DNA from: a bacterium
GTDB taxonomy: Bacteria > Zhuqueibacterota > Zhuqueibacteria > Residuimicrobiales > Krinioviventaceae
Length of the DNA stretch: 64,000 bases
Assembly: GCA_963674595.2 (NCBI GenBank)
Contig: CAXXFV010000025.1
Coordinates: 1 to 64,000, forward strand
Direction: 5' to 3'
Part shown: positions 8,309-51,064 of the stretch, piece after piece
Position numbering within the stretch: position 1 is the stretch's first letter
Layout: every line of letters starts with the position of its first letter
The notes under the pieces: model-generated
The model's database searches: none
Told to the model about the DNA's origin: nothing
What the model saw: only the letters and a program-made list of their open reading frames with translations
Translations under genes and position numbers: made by a program

Positions 8309-8322
8309 GTACATTATTATAA

Positions 8323-14641: not shown

Positions 14642-16108
14642 ATGGAGGGTAGATTGTCTGAAAAAGATTCATCTTCGATCTCGGCATTTATTCTGGAAAA
14701 TTATCCCTGCTGTGTCCTTTCGCAAAACAATGGGTCTGTTGAGCTGGGCGTCAGTGATCAGTTGTCTGATAAAGAGTTTCAGGAACTTTTGTTTTTATGT
14801 GATGAAAATACCAAGATAAAAAAAGTCCCAAATCAGCAAATTAATCAACGTATTGTGAATGCTCCAAATACATCTGGCGGGCAGCGATTTACTGTTTTGC
14901 AAGAGTTAGCGGAAACCTTACCGGTTAACAAGAAAGATTCGGACACCGATGATGGTCAGGTAATTCAGTTAGTTAATGATCTGATTTCTGATGCAATTTA
15001 TTCCAGAGCAAGTGATATACATATTGAGCCCTATGAATCGGTATTTCGCGTTCGTTACCGATTGGATGGATCATTAAAACAAGTTAAATCTTTATCAATG
15101 ATATTAAAATCACCACTCATTTCCAGATTAAAAATTATGGCGGAATTAGACATAGCTGAAAAACGCCGTCCACAGGATGGACGTATTCGTATGAGTAATG
15201 GTGAACGAACCGTTGATATTCGGGTCTCTTCATTACCTACGGATTTTGGTGAAAAAATAGTATTGCGTATCCTGGACAAATCATCCATTGTGTTCGATGT
15301 GAAAAAAATTGGTCTCTGTGAACGTGATCTGGATTTGCTGAATAAAACTGTTCATTTACCTTTTGGAATGATTTTGGTTACGGGGCCTACCGGAAGTGGA
15401 AAAAGTACAACCCTCTATTCTGTACTTAAAGAGCTCAATACTGAAGATCAAAACATTGTTACAATTGAAGATCCGATTGAATATAACTTGCAGGGAATCA
15501 ACCAATCACATGCTCGAAGCGATATTGGATTTACCTTTGCCAACGCGTTACGGGCGTTTTTACGACAGGACCCGGATGTTATTATGGTCGGTGAAATTCG
15601 TGATAGAGAAACAGCCGAAATGGCGGTGCGTGCATCTCTAACCGGGCATCTTGTCCTGAGTACCTTACATACTAATAATGCGCCGGAAACCATTACCCGT
15701 CTTTTGGATATGGATATTGAACCTTTTTTAATTGCTGCTGCCGTTAAACTGGTTATTGCCCAGAGATTGGTTCGGGTACTTTGCTCGCAATGTAAAGAGT
15801 TAATTACAGACACCAAACTTTTATCCGAACTTGCAGAAAAATGCAAAACATCAACAGATCAATCATTTTATAAAGCTGTAGGGTGTCAGGCATGTCATTA
15901 TACCGGTTTTAAGGGACGGACTGCCTTATTCGAATTGCTTTATCTATCTGAGCACATTGCCCAATCCATTCATTCGCACATTTCCATAAATGATCTCAGC
16001 GAATTGGCCATTAAAGAAGGTATGAAAACTTTGTATCAACAAGGGATTGATTGTGTTAAAAATGGTATAACGACTTTGGATGAAGTGTTACGGGAAACAA
16101 TGAGTTAA
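14642..16108 (+). CDS. gspE: T2SS/T4P assembly ATPase GspE/PilB
   Basis: ASDIHIEP, GPTGSGKST, TIEDPIE, RQDPDVIMVGEIRD, tetracysteine Zn motif. Confidence 0.95.
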   Translation: MEGRLSEKDSSSISAFILENYPCCVLSQNNGSVELGVSDQLSDKEFQELLFLCDENTKIKKVPNQQINQRIVNAPNTSGGQRFTVLQELAETLPVNKKDSDTDDGQVIQLVNDLISDAIYSRASDIHIEPYESVFRVRYRLDGSLKQVKSLSMILKSPLISRLKIMAELDIAEKRRPQDGRIRMSNGERTVDIRVSSLPTDFGEKIVLRILDKSSIVFDVKKIGLCERDLDLLNKTVHLPFGMILVTGPTGSGKSTTLYSVLKELNTEDQNIVTIEDPIEYNLQGINQSHARSDIGFTFANALRAFLRQDPDVIMVGEIRDRETAEMAVRASLTGHLVLSTLHTNNAPETITRLLDMDIEPFLIAAAVKLVIAQRLVRVLCSQCKELITDTKLLSELAEKCKTSTDQSFYKAVGCQACHYTGFKGRTALFELLYLSEHIAQSIHSHISINDLSELAIKEGMKTLYQQGIDCVKNGITTLDEVLRETMS

Positions 16109-16140
16109 TTTATAAAAACAATATAACCTGCGGGTGGAAT

Positions 16141-18042
16141 ATGAAACGTCAAACAATCTTTATATTAGTGTTGTTAATTATAATTTTTTCGGACCTTTTT
16201 GCACAAGAGAAGGGACAGCGTTTCAATAATCATAGGCGTTTTAACGATTCAACCAGAACAACTTTGTTGACAAGTCAAATAATTACTGTTCTGGATTTTA
16301 AAAATACTGACATTAAAGATATCATGCGGGCACTGGCTGAAAAATATGATATTAATATTTTTGTTCAGGACGCTATCGATAAACGTATTACCGTGCATTT
16401 GACCAATATTAGTGTTGATCAGGCCATTCAGTTTATGGTGGACCAATGCCAGCTTTTGCTGGAACAGGAGGGAACAATTTATAAACTCAAATTGCCGGAA
16501 CCGGAACCAGATCCGCCGCCACCACCTTTACGCATATTTATGGAAAACGGCTTGCTGACTGTTGATGTGAATAATGAACCATTAGACCGTGTCATTCGGC
16601 TTATTGCTGAAAAAAGTGGAAAAAATATTGTCCTTGCCAATGGGGTTTCCGGATACATCAGCGGGTTTTTACAAAGTATTGAATTAGAAGAAGGAATTCG
16701 ATCTCTGGCTACAATTAATGGTTTTTCACTGAGAAAACAGGAAAGTCTTTACGTCATTGATTGGGGTATTTTACAGGATACGCAAAAATCAGGACAAAGG
16801 ACCGGACGTTTTTGGGTGAATGCAAAAGATAGTCTTTTATCTATAGATTTTGTCGGTGTGCAGTTGGCCGACGCAGTTCGTGAGATTTCCAATCATTTGG
16901 GGATTGATATTATAATTTATGGTGAAATTAAGGGTATGATTACAGCGAAATGTTCAGACCATCCCATTGAAGAAGTATTGAACCTTCTTTTTAAAGGAAC
17001 CAATTATACTTTTCGCAAAAAAGGACGTATTTTTCTTGTGGGGGAGAAAACAGTTCAGGGTATTTCTTCCACAGAGCTTATACAACTAAAACACATGAAA
17101 GTCGAAGGATTGACAGAAATTTTACCAAAACGCCTAACCTCTGAAGCTGGAGTTCAGATTATCAAAGAGCACAATGGGATCATGGTTACCGGCAGTCAGG
17201 AAATTATCAGCGAGGCACGTGATTACCTGAATCAGATTGATAAACCCATCCCACAAATTTTGATCGAAGCGATTGTTGTGGATTTTAATACAGCCGATCT
17301 TCGTGAGTTTAGCCTGGATGCCGGTCTTGGATCACCTGATTCTTCCAAGGTATCCAGCTTTCGCCAGCTTTTTCCTTTTGTTGAGCAAACAGCTGATGGG
17401 GACTATTTAAATGCTCAAATTGATCTGTACACACCGCGTTGGGGCTTGCCTCAAGTTGGCAGGTTACCAAGCGATTTTTATCTTCGTATTAAGGCCCTGG
17501 AACAGGAAAGCAAGGCCAAAATCCGTTCCCGGCCCCAAATAGCTACCTTAAGTGGACATACAGCCAGCATTAGTATCGGAACAACCCAGTATTTTATTCT
17601 TGAAACGAATACACCTTATCCGGCAACTAATAATATCTATGTTCAGGGCTCCCAGCGTTTTGAGACGATCAAAGCTGAAATGCTACTTGAAGTTACACCT
17701 TGGGTTAGTGCTTCCGGTGAAATTACTACTGAAATTCATCCGGAATTTAGTACTCCAAAGGAGCATCTTGATCCAAATGTGCCTCCGACCATTGATCATC
17801 GAATCCTTAATTCGACTGTGCGTTTAAGAGATGGAGAAACCATTATTCTTGGTGGATTAATTCAGGATATGGATTCTAAAAGTTATGAAAAGTTTCCCAT
17901 TTTGGGTGATATTCCACTATTGGGATATCTGTTTAGAAATCATTCAAAAAATAACACCTCATCCGAACTGATGGTTTATTTGACGCCCCATCTTTATTAC
18001 GAAGACCTCGGAGATGTCGATATTGAGGAAAAGTTGAAATAA
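16141..18042 (+). CDS. gspD: Secretin GspD/PilQ
   Basis: Signal peptide, N domains, QILIEAIVVD, DGETIILGGLI, PILGDIPLLGYLF. Confidence 0.93.
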   Translation: MKRQTIFILVLLIIIFSDLFAQEKGQRFNNHRRFNDSTRTTLLTSQIITVLDFKNTDIKDIMRALAEKYDINIFVQDAIDKRITVHLTNISVDQAIQFMVDQCQLLLEQEGTIYKLKLPEPEPDPPPPPLRIFMENGLLTVDVNNEPLDRVIRLIAEKSGKNIVLANGVSGYISGFLQSIELEEGIRSLATINGFSLRKQESLYVIDWGILQDTQKSGQRTGRFWVNAKDSLLSIDFVGVQLADAVREISNHLGIDIIIYGEIKGMITAKCSDHPIEEVLNLLFKGTNYTFRKKGRIFLVGEKTVQGISSTELIQLKHMKVEGLTEILPKRLTSEAGVQIIKEHNGIMVTGSQEIISEARDYLNQIDKPIPQILIEAIVVDFNTADLREFSLDAGLGSPDSSKVSSFRQLFPFVEQTADGDYLNAQIDLYTPRWGLPQVGRLPSDFYLRIKALEQESKAKIRSRPQIATLSGHTASISIGTTQYFILETNTPYPATNNIYVQGSQRFETIKAEMLLEVTPWVSASGEITTEIHPEFSTPKEHLDPNVPPTIDHRILNSTVRLRDGETIILGGLIQDMDSKSYEKFPILGDIPLLGYLFRNHSKNNTSSELMVYLTPHLYYEDLGDVDIEEKLK

Positions 18043-18060
18043 ATATAAGGGGAGAGTCGT

Positions 18061-19461
18061 ATGAATTTACATAATATAGGTGTCAAATATACCCGGCAAT
18101 TCCTTAAATGGTTTTGTATGAGTGAAAAAGTCGTTGCCATTGAAATTCAAAATAACTTTGTGCGAATTGTGGGTTTGGAAAAGTCACAAGGAAAAATATC
18201 TCAATGGTTTCAGGACACCACATTTATTTCAACACAACAAGAAAATGAACTGACTTTGTTGTTTATTTTGAATGACATCATAGAAAAATATCCCTTTATT
18301 AAAAATGTAGCTGTTGTCATCGTCATGCCGGATTTTCCAGTGCTGTACCGAAACAACAATGGTCAATCGGGCTCTCAATCTTCGTTATTTGAATCTTCGA
18401 ATAATAAAACAGGATCATCTTTTCAGGTCATCAATGATCAGGCAGATCAAGGTCGTTTAGCCCCGACAATCATTTGTAAACATCAGGATTTACATCCTGT
18501 CTTAAATGCATTGGAAAATATCCCATTAAATATCGCATCGTTGGTAAAAGGAGCACCGGAATGGTTAAGCGCCTGGCTGGTGAGTCATGCAGAATTCCTT
18601 GAAATCGAGTGTACGTTAGCTGAACGGAATGATACTCAATCTATTTTGTATCAAGTTGTTCAGGGACGCTGTACCGGGTATGAAATTTTTACTTCAGGTG
18701 AGAATAATTTGCATGCACCGGAGCGATTGAAAGAGGAATCCTGTCAATTTGTATTTGATACGACAGCTTTAGCTGAAAATAATAACAACGGGAATGATTC
18801 CCTTACAAACGATAAAGCATTTATGCGTGCAGAGGGATCAGCTTTATGTCGATTTTTTAATCGATTTTCAAGTTTTAATTTGTTACCACAGGATAAAATT
18901 GCACAATTTGAAACATGGCAGCGTCTGCAAAATGTTAAAAACATTGGCATTCGGGCAGCATTAGCCTGGATGGTTTTGATGGCGGTATTATTGGTTCCGT
19001 TTTTAATAACAAACAGTAATTTGAAGAACTGGGAGAAAAGCTATCGTGTTTTCAAGGGGCAGATTCAAAAGATTGAAGAACTGAAATCAAAGCAAAAACA
19101 GTTATTGGACCGGCAGGAAAATCTTGGGCGTGTTTTCGGAAAACGCAGTGGCTTTGCAGCCGGACTTGGTGCACTGACACAGAAAATGACCAATGAGTTA
19201 TGGCTGGACAGGATTAGTTATAATATGAAAAGCTTGACTTCTTTACAAAAAAAAGACAATTCAAATCTCTTGCTTGAAGGGTTTGCATTAAATGATGAAT
19301 CCGTAATTACTTTGGCAGAGCAGTTACAGAATGATCTTGGCTTTTCCAGGGTCACTGTAGATCTTTTACAAAAAATTCCCAGAGACAAATTGCCCCACAC
19401 TCAGGGTACAAGCAAGTCATTTTTATATCACTTTCAAATTAGCACGGTTGTGACATGGTAA
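18061..19461 (+). CDS. GspL/PilM-PilN-like alignment protein
   Basis: Single TM, coiled coil, LWLDRI...LLLEGFA PilN-like domain; operon position. Confidence 0.7.
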   Translation: MNLHNIGVKYTRQFLKWFCMSEKVVAIEIQNNFVRIVGLEKSQGKISQWFQDTTFISTQQENELTLLFILNDIIEKYPFIKNVAVVIVMPDFPVLYRNNNGQSGSQSSLFESSNNKTGSSFQVINDQADQGRLAPTIICKHQDLHPVLNALENIPLNIASLVKGAPEWLSAWLVSHAEFLEIECTLAERNDTQSILYQVVQGRCTGYEIFTSGENNLHAPERLKEESCQFVFDTTALAENNNNGNDSLTNDKAFMRAEGSALCRFFNRFSSFNLLPQDKIAQFETWQRLQNVKNIGIRAALAWMVLMAVLLVPFLITNSNLKNWEKSYRVFKGQIQKIEELKSKQKQLLDRQENLGRVFGKRSGFAAGLGALTQKMTNELWLDRISYNMKSLTSLQKKDNSNLLLEGFALNDESVITLAEQLQNDLGFSRVTVDLLQKIPRDKLPHTQGTSKSFLYHFQISTVVTW

Positions 19462-20003
19462 ATTGGAAAATATATTTTATCGACAAAAAGACTCGTCTAT
19501 ACATAATTATGGAATGTGCTTTGTTATTGCTTCTGTGTCGTTTTTTTACATTTCCGATGATTGGAAAGATTTTCACTAATATCACCAATTCAAGCCGGTT
19601 TAAAAATCAGGTTATTGAAGCGCAACAGTGGCAGCCATTAAGCCATAAACTGGAAACCCAGCTCAGCTTACAGGAACAAAATCTATCTAACGCGGAACAG
19701 AGTATACTTGTTCGTAATATGTCTGCCTATTTGCGTCTATTGCAAAAATCTGCAAAAGAGAATAATATTCAGTTGCAAACTGTCCGTCCCGGTGATGATA
19801 AAGACAACGAATTTTTAATAATTCAAGTCCAGGCAAAAGGTCCTTTTCACAATTTGGCCAGGTTTATTAACTCTTTAGAACGATCACATATTTTAGCCTG
19901 GGTTGAAGCCTTTGAAATAAAGCATGAAAAAAAGAATTACAAAGCAGTAATTGCTGTGATAAATTTTGGTTTTCAAAAAACAGGTAACAATGCTGAAAAA
20001 TAA
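19455..20003 (+). CDS. GspM/PilO-like protein
   Basis: TM, coiled coil, KGPFHNLARFINSLE motif. Confidence 0.75.
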   Translation: MVNWKIYFIDKKTRLYIIMECALLLLLCRFFTFPMIGKIFTNITNSSRFKNQVIEAQQWQPLSHKLETQLSLQEQNLSNAEQSILVRNMSAYLRLLQKSAKENNIQLQTVRPGDDKDNEFLIIQVQAKGPFHNLARFINSLERSHILAWVEAFEIKHEKKNYKAVIAVINFGFQKTGNNAEK

Positions 20004-20466
20004 AAAAACATTACCGGTACTACTTATCGTGGCCGTATTAGTCTGGGGATTAAATGGTTACCGTTTGATTAAAGGGATAAACCTAACTGATCAGCCGTCT
20101 TTGTTCCAGGACTTGAATTCACAAAATTTTTCAGGTGTCTGGCAAGACTCTGTTTGGTATAAATATCAATATATATCAGTAGATCGGGACCCGATGTTTA
20201 TGCCAATAAAAAAAATGATTATGAAAAAGCAAATTCATAACCGTAAAAAGGAGAAAAGAAAAAAGCCGGAAATCAAATGCCCACAGCTCAGGTTGACTGG
20301 AGTTATTACTGATGAAATGGGTAAACTGGCAGTTATTCTTGATGTAAATCAGTATACTTATTTTGTCAGGCAGAACCAACAGCTTGATTCTGTACAAATC
20401 TCTGCTATCAGTGATTCGTGTGTAATAATTTCTTATAAAAACAAAAAATTTAAACTTGATCTCTAA
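19990..20466 (+). CDS. GspC/PilP-like protein
   Basis: N-terminal TM, RDPM, LRLTGVI...LAVI motif. Confidence 0.65.
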   Translation: MLKNKKTLPVLLIVAVLVWGLNGYRLIKGINLTDQPSLFQDLNSQNFSGVWQDSVWYKYQYISVDRDPMFMPIKKMIMKKQIHNRKKEKRKKPEIKCPQLRLTGVITDEMGKLAVILDVNQYTYFVRQNQQLDSVQISAISDSCVIISYKNKKFKLDL

Positions 20467-21860
20467 TGAAATATATTATCGAAATATTAAAAAAGCAGCA
20501 AGGTTCGGCGCTTGTAACTGTCATGATTTTTTTGACTATAATATTTTTATTAACCTCTGCAATTCTGGTTATTATACACATTCAATTGAGATTTATGAAA
20601 AAAGATGCCAATCGCACACAAGCTATTTATCTGGCCGAGTCTGCTATTTATCGACTTTTGACTGAATCGGATGCAGAACAGTTGTCCTTGTTTATGGAAC
20701 GTGCAACACCCTTATGCGTAGACTTTGAGGATATTAATGGTCATGCAGAACTGACTTTGCGTCCCTGGGGATTATTTTTAAAGGTATGCTCAACCGGATT
20801 TTTTAAAGGCTCAAAAGCAACGATTAAAGTAATTGTGGGTCTACATCGTTCCACACAATTGAATGCAGCTGTTAATCTCAAGCGGTTGGATTTTCCATTA
20901 ATTCTTACGGGTGATACAAAAATAACAGGAAATGTTATTGTGGGTCCCCGTGGTGTACGGTCTGGGAGAATTAAGACGATAAAATACAATTCCAAAGAAC
21001 TGGTCAACGGAGAAATTATCAAATCTGAAAATTCTTTTCCAGAATATGATCTGGATTTTGTGTTAAACCGTTCTTTGGCTTTTTATCGTTATCAACTTCA
21101 GTATCCGGACGGAGTTGTTCTTAGTCAGTCTCTTATCATTGACAGTACCAATGTCGCTATATTGGATCAGGCGGGAAAAATATTTGTTGATGGGGACCTT
21201 ATCATCAATGGATTTTTACAAGGTTATCAAATTAAAGCTTGTAGTTTAGCTGTGGCTGGACAGGTTTTTGTTAATTCTGATATCAGCTTTGGAAACGATG
21301 TTATACTAATGTCTAATGGTGATGTGAATATTTCCAATTGTTCTTTTGCTCAAAGTATTGTTTATAGTCAAGGTATGGTTTCTTTCAACGGACAGGTTAA
21401 TGGTGATGTTCAGGTTTTCAGTGAGAATAAAATAAAATGTTCGGGCAATGTCAATCTGGAATGGCCCTCTATTTTATGTGTGCAGCCTAAAAATTATGAC
21501 TCGGAAGATCCTAATACTGTTGAGCTTGATGAAGGCTCCTATATTGTTGGCAGTGTGCTTTTGTTTACAGATGCATCGGGCGGACCATTTCAAACACATC
21601 GAGTATTTATCGATAAATCAGCTGTTTTAACCGGGTTATTGTATACAACAGGAGACGTAGAGTTGGCCGGGTGTGTTAACGGTACAGTCGCTGCTAATAT
21701 GTTCTATTTTTACCTGGATCCGACCCATTATATGGATTGGTTATTAGATGCAGTTATTGATTTTAGTCGTCTATCTAATGAGTTTGTGGCGCCCTGTGGA
21801 TTTAATAATGAGTCAGGTTTTCGCATTGCTGTCTGGAATTGTGAAAAGCAAAAAAGGTAA
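20466..21860 (+). CDS. GspK/PilX-like minor pseudopilin with beta-helix-like C-terminus
   Basis: QG|SALVTV prepilin site, QAIYLAESAI. Confidence 0.7.
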   Translation: MKYIIEILKKQQGSALVTVMIFLTIIFLLTSAILVIIHIQLRFMKKDANRTQAIYLAESAIYRLLTESDAEQLSLFMERATPLCVDFEDINGHAELTLRPWGLFLKVCSTGFFKGSKATIKVIVGLHRSTQLNAAVNLKRLDFPLILTGDTKITGNVIVGPRGVRSGRIKTIKYNSKELVNGEIIKSENSFPEYDLDFVLNRSLAFYRYQLQYPDGVVLSQSLIIDSTNVAILDQAGKIFVDGDLIINGFLQGYQIKACSLAVAGQVFVNSDISFGNDVILMSNGDVNISNCSFAQSIVYSQGMVSFNGQVNGDVQVFSENKIKCSGNVNLEWPSILCVQPKNYDSEDPNTVELDEGSYIVGSVLLFTDASGGPFQTHRVFIDKSAVLTGLLYTTGDVELAGCVNGTVAANMFYFYLDPTHYMDWLLDAVIDFSRLSNEFVAPCGFNNESGFRIAVWNCEKQKR

Positions 21861-21862
21861 TT

Positions 21863-22240
21863 ATGCAATTTTATAAAATTTTTAAGAATTGTGCAGGATA
21901 CAGTATACTGGAAACTTTATGTGCCCTGATATTGTTAACGGCTGTCCTGGTTCCTGTATGTGGTTTGCTGAGCCGGTTGGCAGTGAATCATATTATCAAA
22001 ACTCAATATCGAAAAGTCAACCTTGCCCGTTCTGTTATGGAAGAAACCCTGGCCCAGTCAACTTTTGTCAATGATTCATGGCAGGTTACACGAGACCGTA
22101 AAACGTGGTTTGTTCAGCGAAAATGCTGGACAGAACTTTCAATGATTCATTTTAAAATAATTGTCAAACAACAAAACACAGACAAAAATGAATATGTGTT
22201 GTACGCCTGTCGTCCTAAATCATTTTATAAACGGTTTTAG
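21863..22240 (+). CDS. Minor pseudopilin
   Basis: AG|YSILE prepilin cleavage motif with E5. Confidence 0.75.
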   Translation: MQFYKIFKNCAGYSILETLCALILLTAVLVPVCGLLSRLAVNHIIKTQYRKVNLARSVMEETLAQSTFVNDSWQVTRDRKTWFVQRKCWTELSMIHFKIIVKQQNTDKNEYVLYACRPKSFYKRF

Positions 22241-22248
22241 AGTTTGTC

Positions 22249-22782
22249 ATGATTGTCAAAAAAAATGATGGTTTTACTATCGTTGAAATTATTGTCGCTC
22301 TTGCACTGACCATGATTATTATTAATCTGGGCTTTCTTTTACTTCGGTATGCACATAAGCAGATACACTTTTGGAAACAACGTGATAAACTAGTTCGATC
22401 TGCTCATGTTTTGGATGAACGTTTTTATAGGGATGTTAGTCAGGCCCGTTCTATTGTCAGCATAACAGAAAAGCAAATTGCATTATTGGACATGGGTAGA
22501 AAGGCTATTGTCTATAATAGTGTAGAAGGGAAAGTTTCAAGAAATCAAATACCAATACTGTCTGAAAATGCCTGGATATCTGATTTTAAATTTGAGGCCG
22601 TATTGGATTTAGATGAGCAAGAGTTGTCTGGCTTATTCACCTTCGAACCATCAGAAATTAACAATTCGGATAATCCTATTAAAGGTATCTGTTATACCGG
22701 TCTTTTAATAGACTCGACCGGTTATCAGATTGAAATCAAAGGATGTGCATCTTTACGAAATCATAAAATAGAGCAAAAGTAA
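22249..22782 (+). CDS. Minor pseudopilin (GspJ/PilW-like)
   Basis: DG|FTIVE prepilin motif. Confidence 0.8.
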   Translation: MIVKKNDGFTIVEIIVALALTMIIINLGFLLLRYAHKQIHFWKQRDKLVRSAHVLDERFYRDVSQARSIVSITEKQIALLDMGRKAIVYNSVEGKVSRNQIPILSENAWISDFKFEAVLDLDEQELSGLFTFEPSEINNSDNPIKGICYTGLLIDSTGYQIEIKGCASLRNHKIEQK

Positions 22783-23918
22783 TGGAAATTTCTGTAAAAC
22801 ATATTCAAGAAATAAAAAGTATCTCTGAAATAAATTCTGAGAACAAAAAAACTAAGAATTCTCTACACAACCGTTTTTTTCAGCGCGTCAAAACCCAGCA
22901 TATTACCCAAATTGTACGTCAATTAGCAACACTGATACAAATGCGCCTTCCGCTTGACCATGCATTGAGCATTATTCAGCAGCAATTGGAACCAGGTCGT
23001 TTACAAGATATTATATCCGATTGTAAAAACCGTGTACAGCAAGGCCAAACATTGGCAGACGCTTTTCAAGCGTATCCAAAACTTTTTCCTGAGGCTGTTA
23101 TTCGTTTTGTTGCAGTCGGTGAACTCACAGGACAGTTAGGTGAAACCCTGGACCAGGCGGCTACTCAGTTGGAAAAAACCGCCCAACTCAAACGAAAGTT
23201 AATGACTGCTCTGTCCTATCCATCTGTTATTATGGTAGTAGCAGCCGGTGCCGTTACCTTTTTACTGGCTGTAGTTGTGCCGACTTTTTCTGAAGTATTT
23301 GCAGATTTTGGAGCAGAACTCCCGGCCGCCACTCAACTGTTGGTTACCTTGGGAGATTTGATTGTTCAGCGCTGGTATGTTGGTGTGATCGCTTGTTATG
23401 CATTGATTATACTGATTCGATGGTTATGGAACCAGCCTAAAATTCGCAGACGTATGGAACATATGTTATGGAAATTGCCTCTGGTGGGTAAAATTATTCT
23501 CAAAGAAAAACTGACTCGCTTTACCCGTACCCTTAGTGCTTTATTGGCTAACGGTATCATGTTACCCACAGCTATTGTTACCAGCGGCCGTACAACCGGT
23601 AGTTTGTGTTTGTGCGAGTCGGCTGAGCGTATGACCGAGCAGGTCAAAAGAGGATTGTCTTTTCACTTGGCCATGAAAGAACAGGGTTTTTTCCCAATTT
23701 TGATTATTCAGATGATTAGGGTCGGAGAAGAATCGGGTGCGCTCAATACCATGTTAAATAAAACCGCTCAGTATTATGAAGCGGAAATCGACGCATCGAT
23801 TGAGTCGTTGAATGCCGTATTGGAACCGATTATTATTGTTGGTCTAAGTATTGTGATAGGTGCTATTTTAATTGCTATGTATATGCAGATTTTTAACGTA
23901 GTCAATGTGATTCAATAA
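22782..23918 (+). CDS. gspF: Inner-membrane platform GspF/PilC
   Basis: RQLATL, GELTGQL, ALSYP, GEESGAL, LEP. Confidence 0.93.
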   Translation: MEISVKHIQEIKSISEINSENKKTKNSLHNRFFQRVKTQHITQIVRQLATLIQMRLPLDHALSIIQQQLEPGRLQDIISDCKNRVQQGQTLADAFQAYPKLFPEAVIRFVAVGELTGQLGETLDQAATQLEKTAQLKRKLMTALSYPSVIMVVAAGAVTFLLAVVVPTFSEVFADFGAELPAATQLLVTLGDLIVQRWYVGVIACYALIILIRWLWNQPKIRRRMEHMLWKLPLVGKIILKEKLTRFTRTLSALLANGIMLPTAIVTSGRTTGSLCLCESAERMTEQVKRGLSFHLAMKEQGFFPILIIQMIRVGEESGALNTMLNKTAQYYEAEIDASIESLNAVLEPIIIVGLSIVIGAILIAMYMQIFNVVNVIQ

Positions 23919-24012
23919 ATTTTAAAATGTTAGAGCCATACATTTTTAACAAGTATAAATTTAAATGAAAATCTAATCAACAGATATATATAACAAAAAT
24001 GAAAGGAATATC

Positions 24013-24429
24013 ATGAAAACATTACGCAAACTTTTGGCTGATCAATCTGGATTTTCATTAACAGAACTTCTCGTAGTTATCGTCATTATTGGTATTTTGG
24101 CAGCCCTGGCAATGCCTAAATTCCTCAGTGTAATTACTCGTGCTAAATCAACAGAAGCCAAACTTATGCTCAAACATGTGCACCAGCTGCAAAAGACCTA
24201 TTATATGGAAAATGACATCTACAGTACCGATCTAACATCAATAGGTTTTGAGCCTGAGCTGTTAAAGACAGAAGGTGGAACTGCCAGATACCTTATCGAA
24301 TTACGCGATGTAACCGCCACTGGTTTTGTAGCCCAGGCAACCGCTGTGGTGGATTTTGATAAGGATGGTGTATTTAATGTCTGGACGGTTGACCAGAACG
24401 GCATAATTCGTGAAGAGGTCCCGGATTAA
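24013..24429 (+). CDS. Major (pseudo)pilin, Bacteroidota T2SS type
   Basis: SG|FSLTELLVVIVIIGILAALAMP; C-terminal AVVDFDKDGVFNVW. Confidence 0.9.
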   Translation: MKTLRKLLADQSGFSLTELLVVIVIIGILAALAMPKFLSVITRAKSTEAKLMLKHVHQLQKTYYMENDIYSTDLTSIGFEPELLKTEGGTARYLIELRDVTATGFVAQATAVVDFDKDGVFNVWTVDQNGIIREEVPD

Positions 24430-24500
24430 TAACATCTGTCTTATAAAAGCATGATAAAAAGTAATTTTCATAATAATTTTAAAAAAGAACTGAAATTTCT

Positions 24501-25271
24501 ATGTATGTCTTTATTTTTTTATTTGGATTGGCTTTTGGCAGTTTTCTGAATGTTTGTGTATACCGACTACCAAAGAGAATATCACTTTGGCAGCGTTCTC
24601 ATTGTCCTCATTGCAGAAAAACTATAAAGTCGTTTGATTTGGTGCCGCTTTTGGGATATGTATTCCTGGGTGGGCGTTGTCGTTATTGCCGTGAACCCAT
24701 TTCTTTGCAATATCCGCTAGTGGAAGTATTGTATACAGGCGGATTGACTGGTTTGTCTCTTATTTACGGTATAAGCTGGGACCTTTTGTTTTATGCATTG
24801 GTCGGCTGGTCTTTACTTGGTACCATGCTGACCGATGTTCGGAATTTTATTATTCCAAATTTTTTTCTGTTTCCCCTGTTTATGGCTTTAATAATTCGTT
24901 GGCATGCCGGAACAGATGTTCTTGTAATGCTTTCCGATATGGGTATTATCCTGGCTGTTGTCCTGGCTGCAGGTTCTATCGGATTTTTGCTGCAGGGGCG
25001 CTTTGGATTTGGTATGGGCGATGTAAAACTACTAACTTTATTGGGTGGTTTATTCGGCTGGTACTTGACACTGGTTATATTTTCTGGGGCAGCATTGATT
25101 GGGGCTAGTTGTGGTTTGGTCGGCGTTCTGTTAAATAAGCTCAATCGCCAAAGTAAACTACCTTTTGGACTGTTTTTGGCGCTGACCAGTTTAGCTTTGA
25201 TATTCATTCAATCGGTTTATCCGAATATTTGGGATTGTTATGATATACAACAATACTTTTCTTTATGGTAA
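24501..25271 (+). CDS. pilD: Prepilin peptidase
   Basis: GSFLNVCVYRLP, CxxC pairs, GMGDVKL, LPFG. Confidence 0.93.
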   Translation: MYVFIFLFGLAFGSFLNVCVYRLPKRISLWQRSHCPHCRKTIKSFDLVPLLGYVFLGGRCRYCREPISLQYPLVEVLYTGGLTGLSLIYGISWDLLFYALVGWSLLGTMLTDVRNFIIPNFFLFPLFMALIIRWHAGTDVLVMLSDMGIILAVVLAAGSIGFLLQGRFGFGMGDVKLLTLLGGLFGWYLTLVIFSGAALIGASCGLVGVLLNKLNRQSKLPFGLFLALTSLALIFIQSVYPNIWDCYDIQQYFSLW

Positions 25272-25351
25272 AATAGTTTGATTTTTAGGAAACATGATTA
25301 AATAAATATTTATTGTTAGCTATGGATAAAGGATTTTAACGGGGTAGTTGA

Positions 25352-26278
25352 ATGAATCACGATCCGTGTGATAAAATAATTGGTAAAAGTAAGCAAATTG
25401 TTAATATAAAGAATCTGATTAAAAAAGCTGCAAGTTTCCCTCAACTTCCGGTTTTGATTACCGGAGAAACCGGAACAGGCAAAGAATTAGTTGCCGAAGC
25501 ATTACATCAAGTTGGAAGTCGGGTAGATAAAAGTTTTGTAGCTATTAACTGTAGCGCTGTACCGGAAATGTTGCTGGAAAGCACTCTTTTCGGCCACCGC
25601 AAAGGAGCTTTTACCGGGGCTGCCTGTGACCAACAAGGCCTGGTTGAAAAGGCTGACAAAGGCACCCTTTTTCTGGACGAAATTGGTGATATGGATATCC
25701 GACTCCAACCCAAACTGTTACGCTTTTTGGAAAATGGAAAATATCTTAAAATTGGTGAAAATCGGGAGCGATACGTAGACGTTCGGATAATAACCGCTAC
25801 CAATAAAAACCTCCTATCTGGAATTAAAGAACAAAAGTTTCGTAAAGATTTGTTTTTCAGATTAAAAGGATTTGAAATAGATTTACCGCCCTTAAGACAA
25901 CGTTTGCAAGATATTCCCCCGCTTACGAAATATTTTCTTAATGGAAATCATCATCTCATTACTTCGGAAATCCATTGTTTATTTTCGAAATATCATTGGC
26001 CGGGAAATATAAGGGAATTAAAAACTCTTTTAGAAAAAATACCTCTTTTGGATCATAATTCTCCTGATTTTGTTGATCAATTAAAAGACTATATGCAGAT
26101 CATTCCTGAGGGTGACATTGATTCTATCAAGACCTTGCAGGAAATTGAATTAGAATATATTAGCAAGGTTTATAAATTTACAGGCTATGAAATTCGTAGA
26201 ACGGCAGCCCTTCTTGGTATTACCCGCAATACCTTAAAAAAGAAAATCAAAGAAAATAATTTGTACAACCAAAATTAA
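25352..26278 (+). CDS. Sigma54-dependent activator (AAA+ plus Fis HTH) lacking a sensory domain
   Basis: GETGTGKE, GAFTGA, FLDEI, WPGNIREL, C-terminal HTH; only 308 aa. Confidence 0.93.
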   Translation: MNHDPCDKIIGKSKQIVNIKNLIKKAASFPQLPVLITGETGTGKELVAEALHQVGSRVDKSFVAINCSAVPEMLLESTLFGHRKGAFTGAACDQQGLVEKADKGTLFLDEIGDMDIRLQPKLLRFLENGKYLKIGENRERYVDVRIITATNKNLLSGIKEQKFRKDLFFRLKGFEIDLPPLRQRLQDIPPLTKYFLNGNHHLITSEIHCLFSKYHWPGNIRELKTLLEKIPLLDHNSPDFVDQLKDYMQIIPEGDIDSIKTLQEIELEYISKVYKFTGYEIRRTAALLGITRNTLKKKIKENNLYNQN

Positions 26279-26286
26279 AAGAACAG

Positions 26287-26553
26287 GTGGGTCAATTATT
26301 GACAACTATAATAAGGTAATTATTTGTTTTTATTATATAAATACAAATTGACTTTCAAGTAAAAAATTAACCCACCCTTATCATTTTGTTTTATCAAACC
26401 TTATAATACTCGGGGAATCCTTAGTGGGTCAAAAATTGATCCACTAAAATTAGTTATTTAAAAACACTATTTTAATGTATGGTTTGTAATATGTTGATTA
26501 ATATCTAGTTGGGTGTGGGGTTGCAAAGCTTCTTTTGTTGGCATGATTGCTGT
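26287..26553 (+). promoter_or_regulatory. Enhancer-like palindromes and sigma54 promoter of Rhs locus 1
   Basis: GTGGGTCAA-N3-TTGAYMMMC at 26287 and 26424; TTGGCATGATTGCTGT at 26538-26553. Confidence 0.7.
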
Positions 26554-26602
26554 CTATAGAGAGTCAAACAGTCAATTTTGTATTAAAATTGGGAGAAAAT
26601 AG

Positions 26603-31066: not shown

Positions 31067-31102
31067 TTGAATTTTATTATAGATAAATGAGAGGATAAAA
31101 AA

Positions 31103-34567: not shown

Positions 34568-34762
34568 TTTAGTAAATTTCAACGTTATTAACAGAATGGA
34601 ATTTGTTCTAAACTTTAAATTAACATATAAATGATCTTTAATATTAACTTGTGGTTATTTTTGTTCTCTGCTTTTCAAACCAAACGAAAGAAGATTTAAA
34701 AAGAATAAAAAAAGTATAAGCGAAACTAAATAATAGAACATATAATTTAAAGGTATATTGAT

Positions 34763-35326
34763 GTGAATGTTAAATGCTTTTTAATTTTACTAATGGTTGT
34801 CATGGTGTCCTGTGCGACAAATTTAAAAAGGCTCCCGGAAGGTGGATTTCGGCCTAAAATACCGAATTTTAAGCTTGCAAAATTACCTTTTAAGTTAAAA
34901 AATAATGTAATCGATACCAATACTGTTTATTATGAATTGGAATTAGATCGAGATTTTCGAATATCTTATTTTGACACATCATTTTATTTTTATCGATTTT
35001 TTTCAAACGGTAGAGTGTATGTGAGTAAAATGTTTTATAAAATTCCAACTGATGATGCTGATTATAATGAATTGAAATCTGGATATATCGGATATTATAA
35101 AATTGAAGATAATAATAAATTGATAATAGAAACATTTGAGCCGATAAATTTAGGAAAATTTGTAATCAGGTATGGAACTATAAAAGGTGATTCTATCATT
35201 ATTCATAGTGAAGATAACAGTAAACTTTTTTTTGGATTAACAGATGCTAAGATGGATATAGAAGATCTTAGTTTAGTCAAACTTAAAAGTCCTAAAATAA
35301 ATTTATATTCGAAACCTGATTGGTAA
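34763..35326 (+). CDS. Lipoprotein, putative cognate immunity protein
   Basis: Lipobox MVSC; directly after the toxin gene; low GC. Confidence 0.65.
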   Translation: MNVKCFLILLMVVMVSCATNLKRLPEGGFRPKIPNFKLAKLPFKLKNNVIDTNTVYYELELDRDFRISYFDTSFYFYRFFSNGRVYVSKMFYKIPTDDADYNELKSGYIGYYKIEDNNKLIIETFEPINLGKFVIRYGTIKGDSIIIHSEDNSKLFFGLTDAKMDIEDLSLVKLKSPKINLYSKPDW

Positions 35327-35495
35327 CTAACATTATTTAATCGCCCCAGATATCACCCCTTTGAATTAAAGAAGCAAGAATATGCTTTTATAGTCAACCA
35401 GAATTTATTTTTTTAGGGTATTATTATCAAAAAATCCTCAAAGGTTTTCATAACTTTTGGGGATTTTGTTTTTATAAGTACTTGATAATGGCATA

Positions 35496-35682
35496 GGCAA
35501 AGAACTGGTGCTTTTACTGGGGCTTCCTGTGATCAGCAAAGCCTGGTTGGAAAAGTTGATAAAGGGACCCTTTTTCTGGATGGGATTGGAGATATGTATA
35601 TTCGACTCCAACCCTTCTTGGTATTACCCGCAATACCCTAAAAAAGAAAATCAAAGAAAATAATTTGTACAACCAGAACTAA
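35496..35682 (+). pseudogene. Internally deleted duplicate of the sigma54 activator gene
   Basis: Segments match ~25478-25490, ~25605-25711 and ~26208-26278, joined by deletions. Confidence 0.85.
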
Positions 35683-35690
35683 AACATCAG

Positions 35691-35954
35691 GTGGGTCAAT
35701 TATTGACAACTATTTTGAGGTAAATAATTGTTTTTATTGCTTATGTGCAAATTAACCCTTGAGTAAAAAATTAACCCACCCCTATCATTTTGTTTTATCA
35801 AACCTTATAATACTCGGGAATCCTGGATGGGTCAAAAATTGACCCACTTGAATTAGCGTTTCAGAATAGATTTTTTAACCAGTGAATGTAATTTATTTAT
35901 TAATATTGGGTTATGGATATGCTAATGAATTTATTCTCTTGGCATGATTGCTGT
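35691..35954 (+). promoter_or_regulatory. Duplicated enhancer palindromes and sigma54 promoter of Rhs locus 2
   Basis: GTGGGTCAATTATTGACAAC at 35691; TGGGTCAA-AAA-TTGACCCA at 35828; identical TTGGCATGATTGCTGT at 35939. Confidence 0.75.
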
Positions 35955-36080
35955 ATTCTTTCACAAACTCATATATAAACCGTATTGGGTGAATCTATAA
36001 GGGCTTGAAAGCTATATTCTATTGTATAAACCACTAGTAGCTCTTTTACCTTAACTGTTAACTTGAATTAGGAGTAAAGA

Positions 36081-42000: not shown

Positions 42001-42794
42001 TTGATTCTTTTTATATCTGGTATGATTATGATTTACTTGGGCGCTTGTCAGCAGTTTACGCTGGTAGATCATCCTCAAAATCATCCATACCTGTTGTTAG
42101 TTATACATACTGGCCTACAGGACAGGTTAATGAACTGATCTACGGAGATCCTGCTGATCCTCTTCAAACTGTCAGTTATGATTATAACAGTCGTGATTGG
42201 GTCTCTCAAATCGGCAGCAATCTTTTTACGCAAAAATTGGGTTACCAAACAGCGGCTGATATAGCTTCCAGCTCCGCGTTTTCATCAAATTTTGATCCGC
42301 AATATAACGGCAATATTTCCTGGATGTCTGTTCTGCGCAATTCCGGTTCTCTACCTCTGACCCGGACCGGATTGTTGTTTGATTATGATTTTGATAACCG
42401 ATTAACAAACGCTGATTTTGGCTACTATGATACAAGCCAGTGGGCCAATTCTGTCAAGTATGATGTTTCTACAACCTATGACCTGAACGGTAATTTATTG
42501 ACTCTCTCACGGCAAAACAATATAACCAGCACGGCTGCAAAGCTTTACAATTATATTTATTACACAAATTCCAACAGGTTGAAAAATGTAAGCGGCACAT
42601 CAACAATAAAATACAGCTATGACCGTGAAGGTAACCTAACTTTTGATGATTATAAAAATGCGACAATCAATTATGATTATCGTAATCTGCCTTACAGGTT
42701 AGAAGTGCCGGGTATCAAGGTTGTTGGTCATTATTATGATGATAATGGCCAACGTGTTATTAAAAAGAAATCTGAATCAAGCGTAACTCCCTAA
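36081..42794 (+). CDS. Large Rhs/YD shell protein (no core) with signal peptide and LamG/CBM-like inserts
   Basis: DLYTG...ASWIGLGW, DUF6443-like segment, YNGNISW, ends YDDNGQRVIKK. Confidence 0.88.
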   Translation: MKTKITLNLFIVFVCLKTVLLAQTGGPITDMMFDNHIASIKYSYENLIDLYTGDFQFDLPLFELKLRGGKTIPFSAKYQSGIKMGQVASWIGLGWHFSPGKIMRSIRGVPDDFRHCYVEKEQVGEFTNFSLSQSLTGLPWYRSICISWERTRQHTKDDIYYYGYLYYQCFNDEYYFDPNITFSDEVCREQSRARMHMNFSGNLTMPYFLAMDDYYVTGFGPQGKIAPYRDGAQAHLFYDDEPVEPINNFIFINNDTKAKVNYITDSDGLITGFIVTDIDGTRYVYGYPVFNNSGQVGIGYKDFGVTNNNYTKHTYNQKYALEWQLTAILYPDFIDNGTKFDGRTVDTDGNWLGLDYNDDGNWIYFKYSLYNDVYNWRVPESSTRISSLWGVSSSDSKHEVSYGSKQLVYLTKIQTPINEVRFEIDQFERQDALEIFSNGTIGTDKPAALSKITVYNYDELNNGRGEIWGFDYKINFHYDHSLCTGSPNSTSGNGKLTLTDVEFIRKEDYCMTLSEHCQPSRTISFEYNDDPNWDNIKWDRWGYYNNNVTLYNHKVPQIGYNDEYVRSWSLNKINFHSGGYISINYESDSYHKVFNLDPQQGISSDLKYGGGPRVKYLKMNDGHDTVNYRIFYSRNDVCDDFSFQTNRDQSSGVAEGEPEPFCALNDLDTRPWEWYPFATYSIGYEQVIVVPNAVQKEEAGNYGHDIVDETDGRIIYEFTAGDEIPDIYTYNSSTYEHYRENNSWKRGKVKGIRYGFIDKTTDQFCCTKEITNQYQNLETEYLDFDKVSWHDQNFLQNVRVRSDFVDVIGGKAVVKTKSESLDGVETTTNITYSKVNGMPVSISTTNSDNDLKESQAVYAFQQYKTGLVPSTTEDYSPIFLASWRFEESQGTIVKDYINPINTGDMHGAAWEASGKIGYCLNFDGIDDYVSIRRSPEYNVVNTLSIEAWICPDSTNSSRTIISKRGAYDLRIDSGYLKIGVQKDNNFIWYGSQVLISADVWSHIVVTLEGSIYKIYKNGVLEQTLLTPGNSTDIWDTGYVKGIWIGAHEEANSVGSSFFQGKIDEVSLYNKVLTLEDVSARYNSGAGKHLSGMDAKYMLSPVYSGIILTNNNKFLSKLWTKWCELGDSFVMDEDWIWKGQDDVAQVPSNPGENYTLCTNIYNKYDEHKNIIETTDANLVKTTQKWGYDGALNIATIKNAINGECSFLNLEDGWSDWTSGNSDLYRTTSDLVPNNQVHSGIYSAYCSTASSEYGPTLNMYIGSDGIDINKNYIFEAWVNIENGEVNIGADARNAQGQSIAGIGWYNSISTGDGWQLLTVEITSDLMSSLTPGCYLQCFCGFPNSGSSGYVDDLRFYPKNSLMTTQTFDLWSYNLSCYMDENNIPSFAEYDNFGLLKTIKNSNYDILKSISYSYSRDNNSDLYNVADPNKVIETLNFDDVNQSVKSVYYDGFGKSIQTQIQDGENDIISAIDYDLLGREYKVWKPFVANTSHAFTAQYDDNEDSDGITESCKEYYDADGPGVNCNGFPFVQTAYGNDPLNRISRIGNPGNNFNINSGHNISYEYDENWDEVTSYTQHNLFKNTTFDENDNQREIYTDKFGHTVLERSYGVYNNTSYYSGSMDPLSVPITNNSGGIIDDDRATSFTPTVSCDAICNVNIITSAEAGEGIVVVKIGDYEGSANIWYRQFTFSAGQNPTDSFSFKVAGGKTYYVAVAAQTDDYLDITTCTTTVEYNNEFMAPIDTYFHHSILGNLEKIIPPKAEGVGTSPLCTSMKYNTLGQLVAKVTPDADGDGDGDPTDESISTDNFDYQYKYDNNGNIRFTKTAKGEFIYNKYDVFNRLVETGVYEGSTTFDNANASTSGEPQTDFPTLDKSVKIIYQYDQEPSWNDGTWPAEPQSPMWFFNNLKGKVSAVKYMTDGWAYTYYSYDKEGRIEWIRHSLPNLPDYSTIEYEYDLQGNIIRQKYTRAEYISEGQYYDIFDSFYIWYDYDLLGRLSAVYAGRSSSKSSIPVVSYTYWPTGQVNELIYGDPADPLQTVSYDYNSRDWVSQIGSNLFTQKLGYQTAADIASSSAFSSNFDPQYNGNISWMSVLRNSGSLPLTRTGLLFDYDFDNRLTNADFGYYDTSQWANSVKYDVSTTYDLNGNLLTLSRQNNITSTAAKLYNYIYYTNSNRLKNVSGTSTIKYSYDREGNLTFDDYKNATINYDYRNLPYRLEVPGIKVVGHYYDDNGQRVIKKKSESSVTP

Positions 42795-42835
42795 TTGATT
42801 ATAATTATAATGAATATAAATTTTAGGAGAAAAGA

Positions 42836-44467: not shown

Positions 44468-44537
44468 AATGATGATTAAATCTTGGGCCTAACCTTGAAA
44501 TAACGGTTTGGCCCTGTTTTTTTTAGGAGAATATCAC

Positions 44538-45491
44538 ATGAAATTAACAAAGCTATTGCTAACTGCTGTTTTATTTTCTATATTTACAAGTAATGGATTA
44601 GCTGAAATTACTCCACCACCAGAGACGACAATCGAGGAGAGTTGGTATTACCACATAAACGACCATTTGGGTAGCTGCCGCACGGTTTTCAAGGACACCA
44701 ACGGCACTGCTTTAGTAGTACAGGAATTTGATTATTATCCCTTTGGTATGGAAATGCCGGGCCAGACAGATGTAGGTGGTACCAAGGCAATCTTTACTTA
44801 TTCTAACAAAGAACTTGACGACGAAGCCGGTGTCAACTTACACTATTTCGGGGCCCGGTTTTATAATGCAGAGATAGGGCGGTGGTTGAGTGTGGATCCG
44901 TTGGGAGAACTGCGGGCTCATGAGTCACCTTATTCATATTGCGGCAATAATCCTTTAAGCAGGATTGATCCTACTGGCTTATATTGGGGTATAACTGAAA
45001 TTAATGGTGAAAATGCCTTAATATGGGTTGTTGAAAAACCAGTTGTTGTTTTTGCGGACAGGTATTTTTCTCCATTAAAGATAGCTGGTTTTATTGGACT
45101 TGGGGTTTTTGCATTCGCTGAACCCTCTTTTGCGGGAGAGGCTTTGTTTTATTCAACAGCTATTGCCTCAGGTTGGAAAGTTGGTAGCTATTTAAGTAAA
45201 CAAAAAGAGCGTGAATTAAACGAGGGGAATACTGAAACAGATCAGTGGGAAGATGACGAAGGAAGAGCTCCCGATCCGAATAAAGTGTATGTAGATAAAG
45301 ATGGTAAAGAATATAAATTCAAACCCAAAAGAAATTGGGACGGAAAACCTGATAGAAAGGGAAATTTTGTGGATAAACAAGGTAGGGCTTGGAGTAAAGT
45401 AACTGATCATAAAGGATCGCATAGAAACCCTCATCGTGATATACAATTATCAAATGGTCGTGATTATGTGAGAGTATGGCCCAAGAAATAA
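44538..45491 (+). CDS. Signal peptide + Rhs core + Ntox37-like predicted RNase toxin
   Basis: RBS AGGAGA, MKLTKLLL; NDHLGS, DYYPFG, KELD, YFGARFY, PLSRIDPTG; C-terminal FKPKRNWDGK...PHRDIQ. Confidence 0.85.
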   Translation: MKLTKLLLTAVLFSIFTSNGLAEITPPPETTIEESWYYHINDHLGSCRTVFKDTNGTALVVQEFDYYPFGMEMPGQTDVGGTKAIFTYSNKELDDEAGVNLHYFGARFYNAEIGRWLSVDPLGELRAHESPYSYCGNNPLSRIDPTGLYWGITEINGENALIWVVEKPVVVFADRYFSPLKIAGFIGLGVFAFAEPSFAGEALFYSTAIASGWKVGSYLSKQKERELNEGNTETDQWEDDEGRAPDPNKVYVDKDGKEYKFKPKRNWDGKPDRKGNFVDKQGRAWSKVTDHKGSHRNPHRDIQLSNGRDYVRVWPKK

Positions 45492-45629
45492 AGTAGTGTA
45501 ATATAATAAGTGAAAAGATGATTGCATATAAAGATGGGATAGAATAAATAGATTGAATTTAATAAATTAAAAAGTAAGAAGCATCTATTGCAGGATTGGT
45601 GTTGATGATTTAAATTGTAAGGACAAATT

Positions 45630-46190
45630 ATGATAAGTTACAAAAAATATGAGAAATGGTATAGTGATCATGATAATGATGATACATTCCTATTGATTGC
45701 TGTAAATTATGATCCTGAAAGCAAAGAAAAGTATATTCAGCAGAAAGGATTTGATTTAGAGTGTCCCATTTCAGACATTGAGAAATATTCTGATATACTT
45801 ACTAACGTAATCTCAAAATTTGCAGGTAATTCTTTTCATGTTAAGTTACAATACGAAGAGTTTTCTTGGTACCCTGATTGGTTGTATAAGGAATATAAAG
45901 AAACCGAATATTTAAAAAAATATTTGGAAACGGTAAAACTGAAGAATAATTTTGAAGGTGAATTTGAGATATCAAATATAAAGGAGTTTTTAATTAATTT
46001 TTTAGATTATCCTTCAAAATATAGATATCAAGATATAGAGATTTTTTCAGTTGAATCTGATTTTGCCTTTGTTATTTCAGGGCATGGAACGTTTTGGTTT
46101 GTTCATGAGAATGAAGGTGTTCTAAAGGAGATTGGTAAATTATTAGATAATGAAGGCGTAACAGTAATGCCCTTAAAGTATTTAACATAA
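45630..46190 (+). CDS. Putative cytoplasmic immunity protein
   Basis: Acidic, aromatic-rich 186 aa protein directly after the toxin gene; no signal peptide. Confidence 0.6.
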   Translation: MISYKKYEKWYSDHDNDDTFLLIAVNYDPESKEKYIQQKGFDLECPISDIEKYSDILTNVISKFAGNSFHVKLQYEEFSWYPDWLYKEYKETEYLKKYLETVKLKNNFEGEFEISNIKEFLINFLDYPSKYRYQDIEIFSVESDFAFVISGHGTFWFVHENEGVLKEIGKLLDNEGVTVMPLKYLT

Positions 46191-48131: not shown

Positions 48132-48227
48132 CGTATTCCGGTGAAAGTTGCCACTGATTCCGGCTGAAAGTTTACCACTGAACAATCCAAACATTTAGAC
48201 AATTTTAATTTATCATAGTGGCAATTT

Positions 48228-51047: not shown

Positions 51048-51064
51048 TTGGCACGGCAGTTGCA
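51048..51064 (+). promoter_or_regulatory. Consensus sigma54 promoter
   Basis: TTGGCACGGCAGTTGCA, GG-N10-GC. Confidence 0.65.

Follow-up and report, generated by a model that had tools for sequence, protein, structure and literature searches.

A 64,000-nucleotide stretch of DNA from a bacterium of the Zhuqueibacterota (the window; bases 1-64000 of an 89-kb contig in a 6.6-Mb genome that is 97.6% complete) was found to contain twelve intact genes on the plus strand at 14642-26278, comprising an 11-gene type IV filament operon without PilT and an activator gene, and two Rhs cassettes of two and three chain genes that start 325 bp after the end of the activator gene. We estimate at roughly 0.65 both the probability that the machine encoded by this operon exports the neighbouring Rhs toxins and the probability of the broader reading, in which the operon belongs to a PilT-less, pilus-derived secretion clade of the Fibrobacteres-Chlorobi-Bacteroidetes (FCB) group with large, Sec-exported proteins built on a YD shell (Rhs polymorphic toxins as well as teneurin-like proteins) as its usual cargo. 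Since the machine stands beside signal-peptide-bearing, often split Rhs proteins in most of the genomes that carry it, it is probably a new export route for Rhs toxins. A first-pass annotation, made from the sequence of the window alone, had described a dedicated machine resembling a type II secretion system (T2SS), co-regulated with Rhs toxin genes on a mobile island. The operon genes that it named, four pilins among them, were all recovered intact and on the plus strand with the Rhs genes directly after them, and, as it had stated, searches with Pfam and NCBIfam detected no VgrG, PAAR, Hcp or PilT in the window.

Pairing of the machine with Rhs genes

The enrichment of Rhs genes near this clade, which had been proposed as a check, was strong. 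The major pilin was used as clade marker in a sample of 251 Bacteroidota genomes, each at least 95% complete and including one centre genome (G041) that was not randomly drawn (here and below, G numbers denote sampled genomes, L numbers fetched loci and C numbers contigs of the source genome). The pilin was detected in 28 genomes and an Rhs core in 104, and a core was present anywhere in 27 of the 28 pilin genomes compared to 77 of the 223 others. Among the matches listed, the nearest Rhs core was located within 20 kb of the pilin in 22/28 genomes, where 0.88 was expected from core density, whereas the count for the second, PilT-bearing pilus system, taken at its secretin in the 18 of these genomes that have it, was 0/18 (these second secretins were mostly assigned by score, with gene context checked for five). 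Among the six misses, one had a core at 32 kb, in four, all draft assemblies, the cores were confined to other contigs, and G230 contained an orphan pilin with neither machine nor Rhs core; in G015 there was no machine and the fetched Rhs locus held only core fragments, a pattern of co-loss. Within the phylum of the source genome (113 genomes), the pilin was counted in 13 at E <1e-60, 13 further genomes with weak matches being counted as negative; an Rhs core was present in 12/13 compared to 27/100, and within 20 kb in 7/13.

Comparison of fetched loci gave the same picture, using profiles for Rhs, YD and teneurin-type genes that were built from clade neighbours and are thus biased toward the clade. 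Such a gene was present in 31/72 clade loci and in 0/86 loci of other pilins, and, when only loci with 6 kb or more outside the machine were counted, in 28/39 and 0/44, respectively. In the complete genome G043 with three pilin copies, all 8 Rhs cores were found 13-25 kb from one of them; G008 has two machine copies, each with an Rhs cassette of its own, and all four plasmid records with the pilin (4/4) have Rhs cores beside it. Teneurin-type proteins with many Ig repeats were found beside the machine in five loci of the Bacteroidota group (L023, L039, L042, L048, and L093). The linkage might reflect mere hitch-hiking, if both modules gather in mobile conflict regions while being functionally unrelated; integrase, insertion sequence (IS), Hachiman and TIR genes do surround the locus, and restriction-modification and IS genes flank the machine copies in G008. 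However, the pairing was maintained through many gene-order rearrangements in both subclades of the machine, Rhs genes are situated within the machine operon at L176, L178/179, L180/181, and L182, and the controls gave zero, which makes this explanation very improbable.

Clusters of such machines near rhs genes in Bacteroidota, mentioned in the first-pass annotation, do exist, both among the fetched loci and in a published 35-kb type II secretion cluster of Flavobacterium psychrophilum CC-ST10, in which machine genes enclose two ABC-toxin-domain genes and for which a dedicated translocation role was suggested (PMC5808330, section 17). The enclosed genes are YD-shell genes, akin to the pairing found in this study; the account concerns one species and a possible role in virulence, with no survey, polymorphic-toxin reading or split chains. 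In the part of PMC3482391 covered, a 'T2SS' class is defined by signal peptide and the word 'secretin' is absent. The titles and abstract openings searched, with subscription literature mostly outside reach, contained no description of a general machine-Rhs pairing, of DUF6443 or of split chains. In two machine loci (L191:2589-3739 and L043:1954-3124) a gene for an OmpH-like chaperone adjoins the Rhs shell gene, as is also reported for F. psychrophilum (PMC5808330). One further locus of G043 (L186) holds a partial extra machine copy (D, L, M, C) beside two T9SS-tagged paralogues, T9SS being the type IX secretion system; the 40 kb fetched there contained no Rhs core.

Several observations weigh against Rhs export by the machine. 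The counts overstate independence because the genomes are related; 11/39 clade loci, four of them from Calditrichota, had no Rhs gene in the fetched DNA, and machine-bearing genomes also hold Rhs loci distant from the machine. Rhs genes of the DUF6443 type were found in 40/251 genomes, namely 21/28 with and 19/223 without the pilin, and of these 19 pilin-negative genomes 18 lack any GspE/PilB ATPase and three have TssD; the machine is thus dispensable for this class of Rhs. The T9SS protein SprA is encoded in the source genome. The assembled product of cassette 2 would amount to about 3100 residues, and all T2SS substrates known to us are smaller. Finally, mutants in the corresponding machine of Cytophaga hutchinsonii showed cellulose and outer-membrane defects, and no direct substrate is named in the part of that study used here (PMC5553014).

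Alternatively, the machine may export large surface proteins in general, or display them as a pilus (adhesins, tail-fibre-like and Ig-repeat proteins), with Rhs proteins as its commonest neighbours and not its dedicated cargo. Clade loci that lack Rhs but have further secreted genes within or next to the operon (L034, L050, and L054), arrays of signal-peptide genes with a shared tail-fibre-like C-terminal domain beside the machine (about 17 in G008, L002:8605-20000 and L003; also L191, L192, and L017) and the reduced adhesion of the C. hutchinsonii mutants to cellulose (PMC5553014, in part) all speak for it. We consider it unlikely, as YD-shell genes were the sole recurring neighbour over many lineages and the authors of the mutant study held the porin changes to be indirect (same part of PMC5553014).

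Split Rhs shells with and without the machine

Every Rhs chain of both cassettes showed a signal-peptide-like start, as judged from visual inspection and a crude hydrophobicity rule instead of a predictor. When cassette 2 was aligned to a reference profile of 38 single-chain Rhs regions, chain A ended at position 274, the tail of chain B covered 276-297 (a short match of 10.7 bits) and chain C covered 315-425. Three related cassettes break at the same places, one of them with an unrelated middle chain of 169 aa. Among the 150 relatives of the DNRLRE chain listed, the N-domain recurs in 80, of which 28 continue into a fused Rhs core and 16 terminate in the same tail. As the same junctions, N-domain and tail recur among relatives, the split layout is, judged by sequence, a conserved design, and the tiling suggests that the three chains join into one Rhs shell. 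An origin of the splits as pseudogenes was rejected, each piece having a ribosome site and a signal peptide and the junctions recurring in other genomes. The structural model of the DNRLRE chain has a carbohydrate-binding fold resembling alginate- and chondroitin-binding modules (7vbo and 8wab), followed by a free hairpin. This would represent a three-chain Rhs shell occurring in nature, its targeting module being attached by a short hairpin.

The C-terminal tips and the genes after them are unrelated between both cassettes and among relatives, a polymorphic toxin pattern in which orphan tips also exist. No Pfam family was found for either tip or either immunity candidate, and a lead to Ntox21 for the tip of cassette 2 (0.82) was within chance range. 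The Rhs core gave matches to TcdB2-TccC3, YenC2, and Tse5. PDB sequence searches returned nothing for the shell of cassette 2 or the DNRLRE chain. On another contig of the source genome (C17, L194:13758-17127) two orphan Rhs core-plus-tip fragments are present without shell or signal peptide.

The first-pass annotation had taken the machine as the explanation of the split Rhs. This was not upheld: machine-linked Rhs proteins are often single chains of 2000-3400 aa, split Rhs also exists in machine-less genomes, and dependence of the split on the machine was rejected on these grounds. In 12 Rhs loci fetched from eight machine-less genomes, the gene directly upstream was T9SS-tagged in six, barrel-like (called by eye from the C-terminus) in three and neither in three. 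The T9SS-tailed gene encodes a conserved protein of 540-570 aa and is situated directly upstream of the split pair at L197:6798-15645, L198:8328-16396, L202, L205, L206, and L207; it is a candidate T9SS carrier for Rhs toxins. The second partner family (L200:12896-14350, L201:14520-15869, and L204:12292-13794) has a signal peptide, a long helical region and a barrel-like C-terminus, and belongs to no Pfam family. The Rhs pieces in the window were indeed without a T9SS tail, as noted in the first-pass annotation, while other open reading frames (ORFs) there carry it (58922 and 60721; Pfam and NCBIfam), but the missing tail does not exclude T9SS, since in genomes without the machine a T9SS-tagged gene is often found directly upstream of the Rhs pair. 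The two tagged ORFs lie in a part of the window (55495-62736) that comprises a CARDB and papain-like protease gene and encodes two T9SS-tagged proteins with cohesin or dockerin modules.

These loci, together with SprA in the source genome and the type IVa fold of the major pilin, form the case that the Rhs proteins exit otherwise (by hitch-hiking on T9SS, through a dedicated barrel, in vesicles or on lysis), the machine serving a linked but different step such as target contact or holding the shell on the surface. Neither the T9SS-tagged nor the barrel-like partner family was found in the source genome, however, no strong match to either was obtained in any machine locus, and the operon has no PilT for retraction; we judge this reading improbable. 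The distribution of the two families suggests that partners and machine replace one another, and the machine would be one route among several, neither necessary for the split nor explained by it.

Identity, regulation and surroundings of the machine

The T2SS-like label of the first-pass annotation holds for the PilT-less, secretion-type gene set and fails for a canonical T2SS. No machine component reached the curated NCBIfam gsp equivalog cut-off (bits/cut-off: E 555/630, D 174/351, F 306/424, G 46/89), and for the secretin and the major pilin the PilQ and Myxococcus PilA models outscored the GspD and GspG models. The best folds for the major pilin model (pLDDT, the predicted local confidence, 85) were the type IVa pilins PilA4, PilV, and PilE, though with weak E-values (9e-4 to 7e-3), and the Xcp pseudopilus ranked 16 (E 0.5). 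For the large minor pilin, the Atlas gave clusters of hypothetical proteins from Fibrobacterota and Bacteroidota at 0.96-0.98. PilT, expected for a type IVa pilus, was absent from the operon and from the mapped clade loci; the source genome contains a separate PilT-bearing type IVa-like pilus cluster (C23, 157-167 kb), whose PilT may act in trans on the machine.

D, E, F, G, O, L/M/C-like and minor pilin genes are all present at one locus, which is the gene set of the 'Bacteroidetes T2SS' clade. The putative 'T2SS' of C. hutchinsonii, CHU_3191-3202, is described in the covered part of PMC5553014, and its G-O-E-D-L-M-x-C order (Table 2 there) was found again in clade loci. Six-residue C-termini derived from primers in the same source matched the clade pilins and secretins and not the PilT-bearing system, these being short ends and not full CHU sequences. 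In a quick ATPase tree, 54 clade rows were set apart from FCB PilB (96), in a group that also includes two outside rows at support 91, and formed two subclades (support 98 and 95). Because gene order recurs, primer-derived C-termini match and the ATPase rows lie apart from FCB PilB in the quick tree, the machine is assigned, by sequence criteria, to the pilus-derived 'Bacteroidetes T2SS' clade and not to the canonical T2SS. Relatives were found in records labelled Bacteroidota, Rhodothermales, Ignavibacteria, Kryptoniota, Calditrichota, and Cloacimonadota, in a KSB1-labelled bin and in two Acidobacteriota. In PMC6668835, as far as covered, the C. hutchinsonii-type machine branches with type IVa pili and is a possible novel secretion system. 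That the common Bacteroidota secretin (134/251 genomes) belongs to this machine was rejected, as the scores of most matches resembled those of systems that bear PilT or are Tad-like. Many Bacteroidota have a PilT-bearing type IVa-like cluster (L169-L173), as does the source genome (L193), and a Tad-like class was also seen (L174 and L175).

The coordinates of the machine, the Rhs cassettes and their upstream regions are listed in the table.

Table. Features of the filament operon and Rhs cassettes in the window (aa, amino acids; nt, nucleotides).
Feature	Position	Strand	Evidence
Assembly ATPase, GspE/PilB family, 488 aa, short N-terminus	14642..16108	+	PF00437 3.6e-138; gspE 555, pilB 554 bits, both below cut-off
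Secretin, signal peptide, STN/N0-like domains, 633 aa	16141..18042	+	PF00263 9.4e-44, STN, Secretin_N; PilQ model above GspD
GspL / PilM-PilN-like platform protein	18061..19461	+	PilN 0.0023; position after secretin kept in clade loci
GspM / PilO-like protein	19455..20003	+	PilO 0.00034
GspC / PilP-like protein, likely start 19993	19966..20466	+	gspC 0.0028
Large minor pilin, PilX/GspK-like, 464 aa	20466..21860	+	PilX_N 2.6e-5
Minor pilin, GspI/PilV-like	21863..22240	+	Prepilin-type matches
Minor pilin, GspJ/PilW-like	22249..22782	+	N_methyl
Inner-membrane platform GspF/PilC	22782..23918	+	PF00482 6.9e-57
Major pilin (clade marker)	24013..24429	+	N_methyl, ComP_DUS, Myxococcus PilA model best
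Prepilin peptidase (A24)	24501..25271	+	Domain search
Sigma-54-type activator: AAA+, Fis helix-turn-helix, GAFTGA motif, no receiver domain	25352..26278	+	Domain search and sequence
Cassette 1 upstream region, duplicated before cassette 2; palindromes 26288, 26425; sigma-54-like site 26539	26205..26553	+	
Cassette 1 chain A: signal peptide, YD shell N-part, lectin-like insert, DUF6443, 1487 aa	26603..31066	+	Domain search
Cassette 1 chain B: signal peptide, N-domain, DNRLRE/CBM96 module, YD repeats, Rhs core with DPxG, variable C-terminus, 1154 aa	31103..34567	+	TIGR03696 1.5e-18, NF033679
Predicted lipoprotein, probable immunity gene (from position)	34763..35326	+	38% homologue on contig C13
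Activator-gene remnant and second upstream-region copy; palindromes 35692, 35760, 35828; sigma-54-like site 35940	35498..35954	+	89% over 210 nt
Cassette 2 chain A: signal peptide, YD shell, LamG, DUF6443, 2237 aa	36081..42794	+	Domain search
Cassette 2 chain B: signal peptide, N-domain, DNRLRE/CBM96 module, conserved C-terminal YD hairpin, 543 aa	42836..44467	+	Domain search, profile
Cassette 2 chain C, likely start 44538: signal peptide, Rhs core with DPxG, variable C-terminus	44508..45491	+	TIGR03696 1e-19
Cytoplasmic protein, probable immunity gene (from position)	45630..46190	+	No family
Remnant of further Rhs shell gene between IS256- and IS21-type elements	47943..48137	+	83% DNA identity to 42139-42333

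The activator gene was found tied to the machine in 11 related loci. About 270 nt, together with an activator remnant, are duplicated before both cassettes and hold all five palindrome matches of the window (0.29 expected), so the two Rhs cassettes have a shared upstream region; in related loci the palindrome was not found, save in one control locus at two mismatches. A strict sigma-54 consensus scan gave no site before the machine or Rhs genes. A relaxed sigma-54-like motif, drawn post hoc, was present before the ATPase gene and both cassettes among five matches, which was reached in 2/100 shuffles. Thus, of the co-regulation claimed earlier, the part concerning the two cassettes stands; as the motif is relaxed and post hoc, extension to the machine is only suggested.

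The presence of an integrase fragment, of TIR and Hachiman genes and of IS elements, together with the patchy distribution, is compatible with a mobile region, as the first-pass annotation had proposed; its ends were not found, and the GC content of the operon equals that of the genome. No tRNA was found in the window, and neither attachment site nor empty site was identified. A tyrosine-recombinase ORF near the contig start (141-764) retains the catalytic part only, with an apparent frame break, and upstream of the operon (5930-13233) a TIR-domain gene (ThsB-like) and an intact, high-GC Hachiman hamAB pair are located. At 51049-51334, a perfect sigma-54 consensus lies 76 nt before an ORF of 69 aa, by eye of the excisionase/AlpA type with a helix-turn-helix, possibly an island end.

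Proposed export route and comparison with known systems

If the machine exports the Rhs toxins, each chain would cross the inner membrane via Sec, and the chains would be joined by strand complementation into one shell around the self-cleaved C-terminal toxin, with the glycan-binding modules outside. A short filament would then push the shell through the secretin, or bear it at its tip, and the shell would be released or displayed on the surface against neighbouring cells, immunity being supplied by the small downstream genes. Other pili carry an adhesin at the filament tip. More tentatively, and with the odds leaning somewhat against it, the FCB group may possess a secretion system of its own that arose, separately from T2SS, out of a type IVa pilus and is reserved for YD-shell toxins; in it, multi-chain shells would be stitched after Sec by swappable hairpin tags that bring various glycan-binding modules, and would ride on the filament tip; machine-less lineages would use the T9SS-tagged carrier or the barrel, giving three interchangeable outer-membrane routes.

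Export of Rhs toxins by the machine, if true, would provide an outer-membrane route for Sec-exported Rhs and teneurin-like toxins that does without a type VI secretion system (T6SS), and an added interbacterial weapon in many Bacteroidota and relatives where T6SS markers were not detected. The source genome likewise gave none: VgrG, PAAR, Hcp, and TssD were not detected genome-wide (97.6% complete), with a TssD model that did match three other genomes, and TssD was found in 0/27 machine-bearing Bacteroidota. TcA was also not found, in a search that had no positive-control match. A specific cargo is hereby offered for the machine that a survey of type IV filaments singled out as a possible independent secretion system (PMC6668835, in the part covered). 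The question is directly testable, because cultured strains hold both modules on one plasmid; Persicobacter sp. JZB09 and Pontibacter sp. G13 are cultured non-pathogens that have the two modules.

Compared to canonical T2SS (Gsp, Pul, Xcp), the machine has in common secretin, ATPase, platform, pilins and peptidase without PilT, and a presumed two-step export after Sec; it differs by only four pilins, PilQ/PilA-like scores, a type IVa pilin fold and no gsp cut-off being reached. The C. hutchinsonii 'T2SS' has the same gene set, PilT being unlisted in the covered part of its description, while the machine of the window differs from it in gene order, has an extra sigma-54-type activator and falls into an ATPase-tree subclade other than the Bacteroidia-like group. 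T6SS-delivered Rhs proteins and the BC shells of Tc toxins likewise combine a YD shell, a DPxG Rhs core and a variable C-terminus with a small gene behind it, and the BC shells, too, consist of two chains; in contrast to them, the cassettes of the window have a Sec signal on each chain, no PAAR or VgrG, and glycan-binding modules at the split points. WapA-type Rhs proteins are Sec-exported and have a signal peptide, adhesion modules, a YD shell and a polymorphic tip. The same features are found here and in bacterial teneurin-like proteins, as described in part of PMC13018210; compared to both, the shell in the window is split and a candidate outer-membrane machine adjoins it.

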